Source of the DNA: Escherichia coli
Lineage (GTDB): Bacteria; Pseudomonadota; Gammaproteobacteria; Enterobacterales; Enterobacteriaceae
DNA: 64,000 nucleotides
Assembly (NCBI RefSeq): GCF_030384885.1
Contig: NZ_CP128613.1
Direction: 5' to 3' (one strand)
Shown here piece by piece: positions 21,001 to 24,000 of the stretch (its first letter is position 1; every line of letters begins with the position of its first letter). The position numbers were made by a program.

Positions 21001-24000
21001 ACAGCATTTGATCGCACTGCACTAAACCGCCCGCCTGTTCCAACAGGCGCATCAGTGCCAGCGCAGTCACTGACTTACCAGAGCCGGATTCGCCAACAAT
21101 TGCCAGCGTCTCACCGCGTTGCAGGCTAAAAGAGAGATTGCGGACCGCAGCTATTTTCTGCTGCTCCTGCATAAAGGCAATATTCAGATTTTCAACCGCC
21201 AGCACATCACCGGCATCAAGTTCATCACTGTGTGGCAACGGTGTCCCCTTTTTCACGGTAGATACCGGTGGTTGGCGTATCGCCTGCGTAGCCCCAGGCG
21301 CGATACATTCCTTCGGTGTTAAACGGTAGCGCGACGTTACCTTCATGGTCGATAGCGATTAAGCCACCGCTACCGCCAAGCGCAGGGAGTTTTTCCATTA
21401 CTACCCGCTCGCAGGCTTCCGCGAGACTTAATCCGCCGTAATCCATTAACGCGGCGATGTCATATGCCGCCAGCGCGCGGATGAAGACTTCGCCCGTGCC
21501 GGTACATGAAACCGCCACACTGGCGTTATTGGCGTAGCATCCGGCGCCCACTAAGGGACTATCGCCAACTCGTCCGGGTAATTTATTGGTCATTCCGCCC
21601 GTGGACGTGGCTGCCGCCAGATTGCCGTTTAAATCCAACGCCACGGCACCCACGGTGCCCATTTTCTGTTTTTCATCCAGTGGCGCACCGCTATGGTCGA
21701 GAACCGTTGCCCCTTCCTCGCGCGCTGCCAGGAGTTGTTCATAACGCAAAGGCGTGGAGAAAATCTCCGGCGAGACGCGCTCCATGCCATGAGCAAATGC
21801 AAAATTTTCTGCCCCTTCGCCAATCATCATCACATGCGGGCTTTGATCCATCACCAGGCGGGCAGCAAGAACCGGATTACGCAGATGACTCACGCCCGCC
21901 ACCGCACCGGCTTTCAGGGTGTTACCATCCATCACACAGGCGTCGAGTTCATGGGTTTCATCTCGCGTAAAGACTGCGCCAATTCCGGCGTTAAACAGTG
22001 GACACTCTTCCAGTAGACGCACCGTTTCCGTCACCACATCCAGCGCACTTTCGCCCGCTTCCAGCATTTTCTGCCCGGTTTCAACAATGGCAGACAACGC
22101 CTCAATGTAGCGTAATTCCTGTTGCAGACTCATCTGCGCGCGGCTAATTGCACCTGCGCCACCATGAATTGCAATGACTGCTTTGCCCATAGTATTCGTC
22201 CATTAAGGGTGGCTCGCCACTTTTGCTATAAATATCAGAATTTTTATGAATTACTCATTCAATTTTTGAATATAGAAAGATGGATATGGCATGTAAAGGC
22301 AGGAGCCAGCGCTACGCCCGAGGTGGCATACAGTCTGTGGCGTTTTTCTGACATAATAGGCAAATTCGATTTTGCCTCCGCAGGAGTGTTTTCATGGAAT
22401 TTACCACCGGATTGATGTCGCTCGACACCGCGCTTAATGAGATGCTTTCTCGCGTTACCCCACTGACCGCCCAGGAAACGCTGCCACTGGTACAGTGTTT
22501 TGGTCGTATTCTGGCGAGCGATGTCGTTTCGCCACTGGATGTCCCGGGGTTTGATAACTCCGCTATGGACGGCTACGCGGTGCGTTTAGCCGATATTGCC
22601 TCCGGGCAACCGCTGCCCATTGCTGGTAAATCCTTTGCCGGTCAGCCGTATCATGGTGAATGGCCTGCGGGCACCTGCATTCGTATTATGACCGGCGCAC
22701 CAGTGCCGGAAGGCTGTGAAGCTGTGGTCATGCAGGAACAGACAGAACAGACTGACGCTGGCGTGCGTTTTACCGCTGAAGTGCGTAGCGGACAAAATAT
22801 TCGCCGTCGCGGTGAAGATATTTCTGCGGGTGCGGTTGTTTTTCCAGTAGGTACTCGCCTGACTACCGCAGAGCTGCCAGTGATTGCTTCGCTGGGAATT
22901 GCCGACGTTCCGGTGATTCGTAAAGTGCGTGTAGCGCTGTTTTCTACCGGTGATGAACTCCAGTTGCCAGGCCAGCCGCTGGGCGACGGCCAAATCTACG
23001 ATACCAACCGTCTCGCCGTGCACCTGATGTTAGAACAGCTGGGTTGCGAGGTAATCAACTTAGGGATTATTCGCGACGATCCACACGCCCTGCGCGCCGC
23101 TTTTATTGAAGCCGATAGCCAGGCGGATGTGGTGATCAGTTCCGGCGGTGTTTCAGTGGGTGAAGCGGATTACACCAAAACCATTCTTGAAGAGCTGGGG
23201 GAGATCGCCTTCTGGAAGCTGGCGATTAAACCAGGTAAACCGTTCGCGTTCGGTAAACTCAGCAATAGCTGGTTCTGCGGCCTGCCGGGCAACCCGGTTT
23301 CAGCAACGCTGACCTTCTATCAACTGGTACAGCCTTTGCTGGCAAAACTAAGCGGCAATACCGCCAGCGGCCTGCCAGCGCGTCAGCGCGTACGCACGGC
23401 TTCTCGCCTCAAGAAAACGCCTGGTCGCCTTGATTTCCAACGTGGTGTGCTGCAACGTAATGCTGACGGTGAACTGGAAGTCACCACCACCGGGCATCAG
23501 GGCTCACATATATTTAGCTCTTTTAGCCTCGGCAACTGCTTTATCGTACTGGAACGCGAGCGCGGCAATGTAGAAGCGGGCGAATGGGTGGAAGTAGAAC
23601 CGTTTAACGCGTTGTTCGGAGGCCTGTAATGGCGGAACTCAGCGATCAGGAGATGCTGCGCTACAACCGGCAAATTATTCTGCGCGGTTTTGATTTTGAC
23701 GGTCAGGAGGCGCTAAAAGATTCTCGTGTGCTGATCGTCGGCCTCGGTGGACTCGGCTGTGCAGCTTCGCAGTATCTGGCAAGCGCCGGTGTCGGCAACC
23801 TGACGCTGCTCGACTTCGACACGGTTTCGCTTTCAAATCTGCAACGCCAGACACTGCATAGTGATGCCACGGTCGGGCAACCGAAGGTGGAATCCGCCCG
23901 AGACGCACTGGCGCGGATCAATCCACATATCGCGATTACGCCGGTAAATGCGTTGCTTGATGACGTGGAGCTTGCTGCATTGATCGCTGAACACAATCTG

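Follow-up and report, generated by a model that had tools for sequence, protein, structure and literature searches.

Where does translation of gsiA begin in Escherichia coli, and is it tied to the translation of iaaA, the gene whose 3' end it enters? We examined the junction of these two genes in a window of 64,000 nucleotides (the whole stretch of DNA that was analysed) from contig NZ_CP128613.1. A preliminary description, made from the sequence alone, had proposed that gsiA initiates at a TTG codon inside the 3' end of iaaA, and that this arrangement implies translational coupling of iaaA and gsiABCD. We are highly confident that gsiA does initiate at this TTG, 14 nt inside the end of iaaA. 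Both the start and the overlap are already known, as they belong to the standard E. coli annotation and have support from published ribosome profiling. The features of the junction are collected in Table 1, and the question of coupling is taken up after the evidence for the start codon and the probable history of the overlap.

Table 1. Features of the iaaA-gsiA junction, in window coordinates.
Feature	Position	Strand	Evidence
iaaA CDS, beta-aspartyl/isoaspartyl peptidase, 321 aa	22190..21225	minus	ORF list, RefSeq annotation, NCBIfam
iaaA stop codon TGA	21227-21225	minus	sequence
gsiA CDS from TTG, 623 aa plus stop	19367..21238	minus	ORF list, annotation, NCBIfam
gsiA TTG initiation codon	21238-21236	minus	sequence, K-12 and PGAP annotation, K-12 TetRP, orthologues
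Shine-Dalgarno-like (SD) AAGGGG, within iaaA codons 314-316	21250-21245	minus	sequence, duplex energy, orthologues
iaaA/gsiA overlap, 14 nt, gsiA in frame +1 relative to iaaA	21225..21238	minus	sequence, annotation
iaaA codon AAA (Lys314)	21249..21251	minus	junction alignment
GTG, gsiA codon 12, the 2006 K-12 start (U00096.2), since dropped	21203..21205	minus	PMC4909307 Table S3
First in-frame ATG of gsiA, codon 23, not the start	21170..21172	minus	SD energy, orthologues
Upstream in-frame ATG opening a 659-aa mechanical ORF, not the start	21344..21346	minus	SD energy, orthologues
Sigma-70-like match TTTACA-17-TATATT, candidate operon promoter	22269..22297	minus	consensus match only

The junction in E. 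coli

The 3' end of iaaA reads GAC ACC GTT GCC ACA CAG TGA, and the TTG of gsiA begins one base inside the GTT codon. In the gsiA frame, TTG CCA CAC AGT GAT GAA opens a product that starts (M)PHSDELDAG, and the Met, being followed by Pro, is probably removed. Translation of 21238..19370 gives 623 aa, followed by a stop codon at 19369-19367, and both this length and the N-terminal residues are those that the preliminary description had given for a TTG start. The 14-nt depth of the overlap had also been read correctly. The same description had pointed to the first in-frame ATG, which opens the sequence MQEQQ. This ATG is present, but it is codon 23 and thus lies 22 codons past the TTG rather than the 23 that had been counted. 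If the ORF is extended to the upstream ATG, the product would be 659 aa long and the overlap with iaaA would grow to 122 nt, which bears out the expectation that the long form would intrude extensively into iaaA.

Existing annotation draws the same boundaries. Strain 2013C-4282 shows no difference from the window in a 601-base comparison (100% identity), and its PGAP annotation carries the same gsiA TTG, the same 623 aa, and the same 14-nt overlap with iaaA. The curated K-12 MG1655 record (NC_000913.3 / U00096.3) places iaaA at 866568..867533 and gsiA (b0829, formerly yliA; NP_415350.2) at 867520..869391, so that gsiA again begins with TTG, encodes 623 aa, and overlaps iaaA by 14 nt. K-12 and the window have identical DNA at positions -45 to +27 relative to the gsiA start. 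The two versions of gsiA show only strain-level substitutions, such as D11 here versus N11 in K-12, with 97% identity over the first 200 residues. The 601-nt junction segment is present in 5425 of 5426 complete E. coli genomes. A 35-mer centred on the TTG was found in 5353 of the 5426 by a search that needed a 28-nt exact word for a match.

Family models agree with these gene boundaries. The NCBIfam equivalog model for GsiA (NF007613) gives 1374.4 bits, above its cutoff of 1077, and its full profile (1-623 of 623) aligns with residues 37-659 of the long ORF. Position 1 of the profile falls on residue 37, which is the TTG codon. The iaaA product is recognized by the equivalog model NF007589 (score 710 bits, cutoff 567, alignment over 1-321 of 321), and PDB entries of E. 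coli IaaA (EcAIII) match it strongly by sequence. By its sequence, GsiA is the ATP-binding subunit of the glutathione ABC transporter, with a tandem pair of ABC nucleotide-binding domains in a single polypeptide. These domains are represented by stretches 12-281 and 308-575, which match the fused ATPase Rv1281c (8j5q_D). ATP-driven glutathione import by GsiA is reported in the literature (cited in PMC10355420). The gene order in the K-12 record is iaaA-gsiA-gsiB-gsiC-gsiD, and iaaA, gsiA, and gsiB are seen in the record that is identical at the junction. The operon is induced in cells that grow with glutathione or with limiting sulfur.

The TTG is also distinguished by its SD. A spacer of 6 nt separates AAGGGG from the TTG, and the predicted anti-SD duplex with the 3' end of 16S rRNA has an energy of -7.8 kcal/mol. 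This pairing is the strongest among the 61 in-frame NTG codons (ATG, GTG, or TTG) of the ORF, and thus the TTG fares better than would be expected by chance. Across the minus strand of the whole window, 1.65% of 3155 NTG triplets have an energy of -7.8 kcal/mol or better. The spacer also falls within the 5-9 nt that define an in-frame UUG start with an upstream SD.

Choosing among the candidate start codons

A scan of species-representative genomes yielded 80 loci from Enterobacterales, Burkholderiales, and other groups, and iaaA lies directly upstream of gsiA in 70 of these. At the codon aligned to the E. coli TTG, the 23 ungapped Enterobacteriaceae loci carry GTG (10 loci), TTG (8 loci), or ATG (5 loci), and all 23 share T and G at the second and third positions of this codon. 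TTG is found in Escherichia, Citrobacter, Superficieibacter, and Pseudocitrobacter, whereas Enterobacter, Lelliottia, Phytobacter, and Siccibacter use GTG, as does locus L050. ATG occurs in Leclercia, Cedecea, a Pluralibacter, and one Pantoea locus outside the 23. The purine-rich AAGGRG SD is retained in the orthologues.

The sequence on the two sides of this codon behaves differently. In gsiA codons 2-8 (PHSDELD), the amino acids are kept amid synonymous turnover (Pro as CCA, CCG, or CCC; Ser as AGT, AGC, or TCT; Leu as CTT, CTG, CTC, TTG, or TTA). Diversity over these codons is 4.2, 3.2, and 5.8 for codon positions 1, 2, and 3, respectively, and is thus highest at the third position. Third-position periodicity in the gsiA frame was not found in the 45 nt upstream of the start in the orthologue alignment. 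An alignment of orthologues had been suggested as a check on the TTG, and the presence of TTG, GTG, or ATG at the aligned codon in every one of the 23 loci speaks in its favor.

Initiation in K-12 has been mapped by tetracycline-inhibited ribosome profiling (TetRP; Nakahigashi et al. 2016, DNA Res 23:193, PMC4909307). Row 8 of Table S2 in that study (yliA/ECK0819) lists a new site at 866743 (U00096.2 coordinates), which is a TTG located -33 nt from the 2006 start, and the row holds this single candidate site with no second. In this row, which is flagged 'nt' (manual inspection: not tested) and concerns K-12, whose sequence is identical around the site, the TetRP depth at the TTG is 46.3, 140.5, and 70.6 in three samples, whereas the 2006 start has 0, 0, and 3.0. 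Table S3 gives the start as 866776 (2006) and 866743 (2014/TetRP), and the 2014 record (U00096.3, 867520) already carried this same -33 nt shift. The 2006 start corresponds to the GTG of codon 12, at 21205 in the window. Thus, the kind of profiling that the preliminary description had named as a check has been published for K-12, and it places initiation at the TTG and not at another codon.

The N'-peptide column of the TetRP table is blank for this row, and the table therefore holds no GsiA N-terminal peptide. No entry for gsiA was found in the examined part of the TRAINSPOTTER supplement, where iaaA is present, or in a Salmonella riboproteogenomics supplement. Other genes treated in PMC4909307 make useful comparisons. 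The ybeZ gene with its TTG and the ftsH gene with its UUG resemble gsiA in having a non-AUG start with an SD, a TetRP footprint, and a re-annotation between 2006 and 2014. Unlike those genes, gsiA has no confirmation by a lacZ fusion or an N-terminal peptide, and its start is located inside the upstream gene.

Three other starts can be weighed against this evidence. The GTG at codon 12 would yield a protein of 612 aa and remove the overlap with iaaA altogether. This was the annotated start in U00096.2, and it would leave the first domain nearly complete, since the solved and profiled homologues begin just 1-4 residues earlier. However, the TetRP signal at this codon is close to nil by comparison with the TTG (PMC4909307), its SD is weak (-3.0 kcal/mol) and abuts the codon, and the GTG is missing from loci L003 and L006. 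Moreover, gsiA codons 2-11, which this start would place outside the gene, evolve like coding sequence. We consider initiation at the GTG very unlikely. A start further upstream within iaaA, at GTG 21256 or ATG 21346, would lengthen both GsiA and the overlap, and in E. coli and Citrobacter the gsiA frame does stay open as far as 21346. The SDs are poor at both codons (-3.0 kcal/mol for the GTG and -1.5 kcal/mol for the ATG), the GTG is replaced by GCG in L003 and L004, and the ATG is missing in E. albertii. An in-frame stop is located 4-5 codons before the gsiA start in Enterobacter-type loci, which makes an upstream start impossible there. Translation in the gsiA frame 5' of the TTG is not conserved, the NCBIfam GsiA profile has no upstream extension, and the TetRP peak sits at the TTG (PMC4909307). 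Starts in this upstream region therefore appear highly improbable.

The ATG at codon 23 has in its favor that ATG is the commonest start codon and that this is the first one past iaaA, yet the chance that it serves as the gsiA start is close to negligible. It has no SD (+0.4 kcal/mol), it is not among the TetRP candidates (PMC4909307), and Citrobacter and Enterobacter have Glu or Gln in place of the Met. In addition, the alignments with two solved homologues, M. tuberculosis Rv1281c (8j5q_D) and E. coli DppD (8z1v_C), begin at GsiA residue 12-13, which corresponds to residue 4 of each chain. Initiation at codon 23 would therefore delete residues 12-22, which open the first ATPase domain and hold its first conserved strand.

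Annotation, the NCBIfam model, the 80-locus comparison, and K-12 TetRP (PMC4909307) all agree with the TTG start that had been proposed. For this gene, choosing either the longest ORF (659 aa) or the first ATG would give a wrong call. The annotation history is a case in point, as the 2006 record used a GTG 33 nt downstream and the start had been moved to the TTG by the 2014 record. Beyond annotation quality the start matters little, although it illustrates that a non-ATG start and an overlap can be read from the sequence alone.

Origin of the overlap

The same 14-nt overlap is found in six Escherichia and Citrobacter loci (L001-L006). Among relatives, the iaaA/gsiA junction takes several forms, with overlaps of 14, 8, 4, or 1 nt and, in Enterobacterales, gaps of 9-13 nt. 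Gaps of 30-130 nt are present in Burkholderiales. Thus, the two genes stay closely juxtaposed in Enterobacterales without keeping the particular 14-nt form.

The junction reads GAATAAGGGGG in Enterobacter, Leclercia, Lelliottia, Superficieibacter, and Pseudocitrobacter versus GAAAAAGGGGA in Escherichia and Citrobacter. In the latter two genera, iaaA reads CGT GAA AAA GGG GAC. The end of iaaA is GAA TAA GG(G/A)G in Enterobacter, Leclercia, Lelliottia, Phytobacter, Superficieibacter, Pseudocitrobacter, and Siccibacter. In these TAA-type genera, iaaA is shorter by 8 codons, and its stop codon lies 9-11 nt before the gsiA start and is embedded in the SD.

Judging from this alignment, the 14-nt overlap is probably a derived state, in which an ancestral iaaA stop codon within the gsiA SD (GAA-TAA-GGGGG) would have become AAA in the Escherichia/Citrobacter lineage. 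By parsimony, a change of TAA to AAA at window position 21251 would have added eight residues (KGDTVATQ) to IaaA and created the overlap. Before this loss of the stop codon, iaaA termination would have taken place 11 nt upstream of the gsiA start, and after it 11-14 nt downstream.

The extended IaaA ends at a TGA that would already have been present in the alternate frame of the conserved gsiA His-Ser-Asp/Glu codons. In PDB entry 2zal_B, the IaaA beta chain is deposited only to residue 315, which is compatible with a dispensable tail and proves nothing about it.

Possible coupling of iaaA and gsiA translation

UUG is a weak start codon. In the mechanism that the evidence supports best, which is ordinary SD-directed initiation, the AAGGGG SD would place the 30S subunit from its position 6 nt upstream of the UUG, and gsiA translation would then begin at that codon. 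Both elements are contained within the last eight iaaA codons, and the two frames therefore overlap by 14 nt. A single mRNA very probably carries iaaA-gsiABCD, and ribosomes completing iaaA would cross the gsiA ribosome-binding site (RBS) before terminating at 11-14 nt beyond the UUG. Some of the initiation at gsiA might then arise by local re-initiation or by unmasking of the RBS, which would amount to translational coupling, and the weak UUG would hold GsiA output at a modest level.

The geometry of a coupled pair is present, in that the genes are same-strand neighbors with a 14-nt overlap and the gsiA SD lies inside iaaA. Coupling of some degree, as the preliminary description had proposed, fits this geometry but is not needed to explain the data, and we regard it as an evenly balanced proposition. 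The competing view, which comes close to an even chance, is that the TTG is the start but operates independently of iaaA translation, and that the overlap is a neutral, uncoupled by-product of the iaaA stop loss. Independence is favored by a junction geometry that varies freely among relatives, by a good SD in nearly all Enterobacteriaceae loci, and by the lack of conservation of the RBS hairpin described below. However, in Enterobacterales the distance between the iaaA stop codon and the gsiA start does not exceed about 14 nt, and the SD in this order is always in or at the end of iaaA, which is an arrangement typical of coupled pairs. It is also established that a weak UUG would gain from ribosomes delivered locally. 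Coupling in its stronger form, wherein gsiA translation depends largely on back-scanning re-initiation by ribosomes finishing iaaA and the IaaA:GsiA ratio is set in this way, seems unlikely. If coupling does operate, it would add one more case of stoichiometry control, in a sulfur-scavenging operon, rather than a new principle.

Scans of the minus strand revealed nothing resembling a promoter within iaaA, nor any terminator-like site separating it from gsiA. An Rfam search of the junction returned no known RNA element, and its one match, to a snoRNA inside iaaA, is far below threshold and attributable to chance. In E. coli, a hairpin is predicted around the SD and TTG, with a 10-bp stem formed by pairing of 21270-21261 with 21217-21208. 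The predicted fold has an energy of -39.1 kcal/mol (z = -2.1), and 4 of 200 shuffled sequences fold as well. Citrobacter and Enterobacter lack the hairpin, the sequence of its 3' arm being unrelated in Citrobacter, and in E. albertii and K-12 uncompensated mismatches break it in part. A consensus fold of 14 orthologues reaches only -5.3 kcal/mol and does not contain the hairpin. We therefore rejected a conserved hairpin that masks the RBS, as the structure is predicted for E. coli only and has no compensatory pairs in the orthologues, and its marginal E. coli form was not used in support of coupling.

An IaaA-GsiA fusion made by frameshifting was also considered and is unsupported. When inspected by eye, the run GAAAAAGGGG holds no X XXY YYZ heptamer in the iaaA frame. 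In addition, the gsiA frame is +1 relative to iaaA, and relatives carry a stop codon there.

The trpE-trpD and trpB-trpA gene pairs are classical examples of overlapping genes that are translationally coupled. Those pairs overlap by 1-4 nt (ATGA or TGATG), whereas the iaaA stop codon lies 11-14 nt past the gsiA start, and iaaA-gsiA is only a candidate for coupling. Nevertheless, all three pairs are alike in that the two genes share a strand and an operon, the downstream RBS resides in the final coding stretch of the gene before it, and the stop codon is within a few codons of the start.

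Position of the iaaA stop codon

In the genera sampled here (loci L001-L018), iaaA codon 314 is AAA in Escherichia and Citrobacter, whereas the aligned codon is a TAA stop in Enterobacter, Leclercia, Lelliottia, Phytobacter, Superficieibacter, Pseudocitrobacter and Siccibacter. In these TAA-type genera, the iaaA stop sits within the gsiA Shine-Dalgarno (SD) sequence (GAATAAGGGGG). Given this difference, the 14-nt overlap with gsiA and the 8-residue IaaA tail (KGDTVATQ) look like a derived stop-loss extension.

Features of the iaaA-gsiA junction (window coordinates where applicable)
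Feature	Position	Strand	Description
iaaA codon 314	21249-21251	minus	AAA in Escherichia and Citrobacter
10-bp inverted repeat CACCGGUAUC ... GAUGCCGGUG	21208-21270	minus	flanks gsiA SD and TTG in E. coli
L028, L038, L039, L052			9-nt gap from iaaA stop to gsiA start; Siccibacter, Mixta, one Pantoea and one Erwinia locus

Conservation of the gene pair

The iaaA gene lies directly upstream of gsiA in 70 of the 80 related loci (L003-L082). This adjacency extends to the Burkholderiales (Achromobacter, Bordetella, Paraburkholderia, Variovorax and Cupriavidus) and to Methylobacterium, so the association between this ABC importer and an isoaspartyl/beta-aspartyl peptidase is far older than the enterobacterial overlap. 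At the four loci with a 9-nt gap, the two genes consequently share a reading frame and are separated by one stop codon, through which the tblastn alignment ran at L028.

Predicted hairpin and junction allele in E. coli

The inverted repeat is predicted to form a hairpin of -39.1 kcal/mol (z = -2.1). The structure is not conserved in Citrobacter or Enterobacter, and no compensatory changes were seen among the relatives compared, which makes the hairpin probably fortuitous.

For window positions 20900-21500 (601 nt), identity reaches 99% or higher in just 3 of the 5425 E. coli records and lies at 95-99% in the remainder. By this measure, the window represents a lineage that is uncommon at the junction, or carries an uncommon allele there. 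A 100% match was found solely in strain 2013C-4282.
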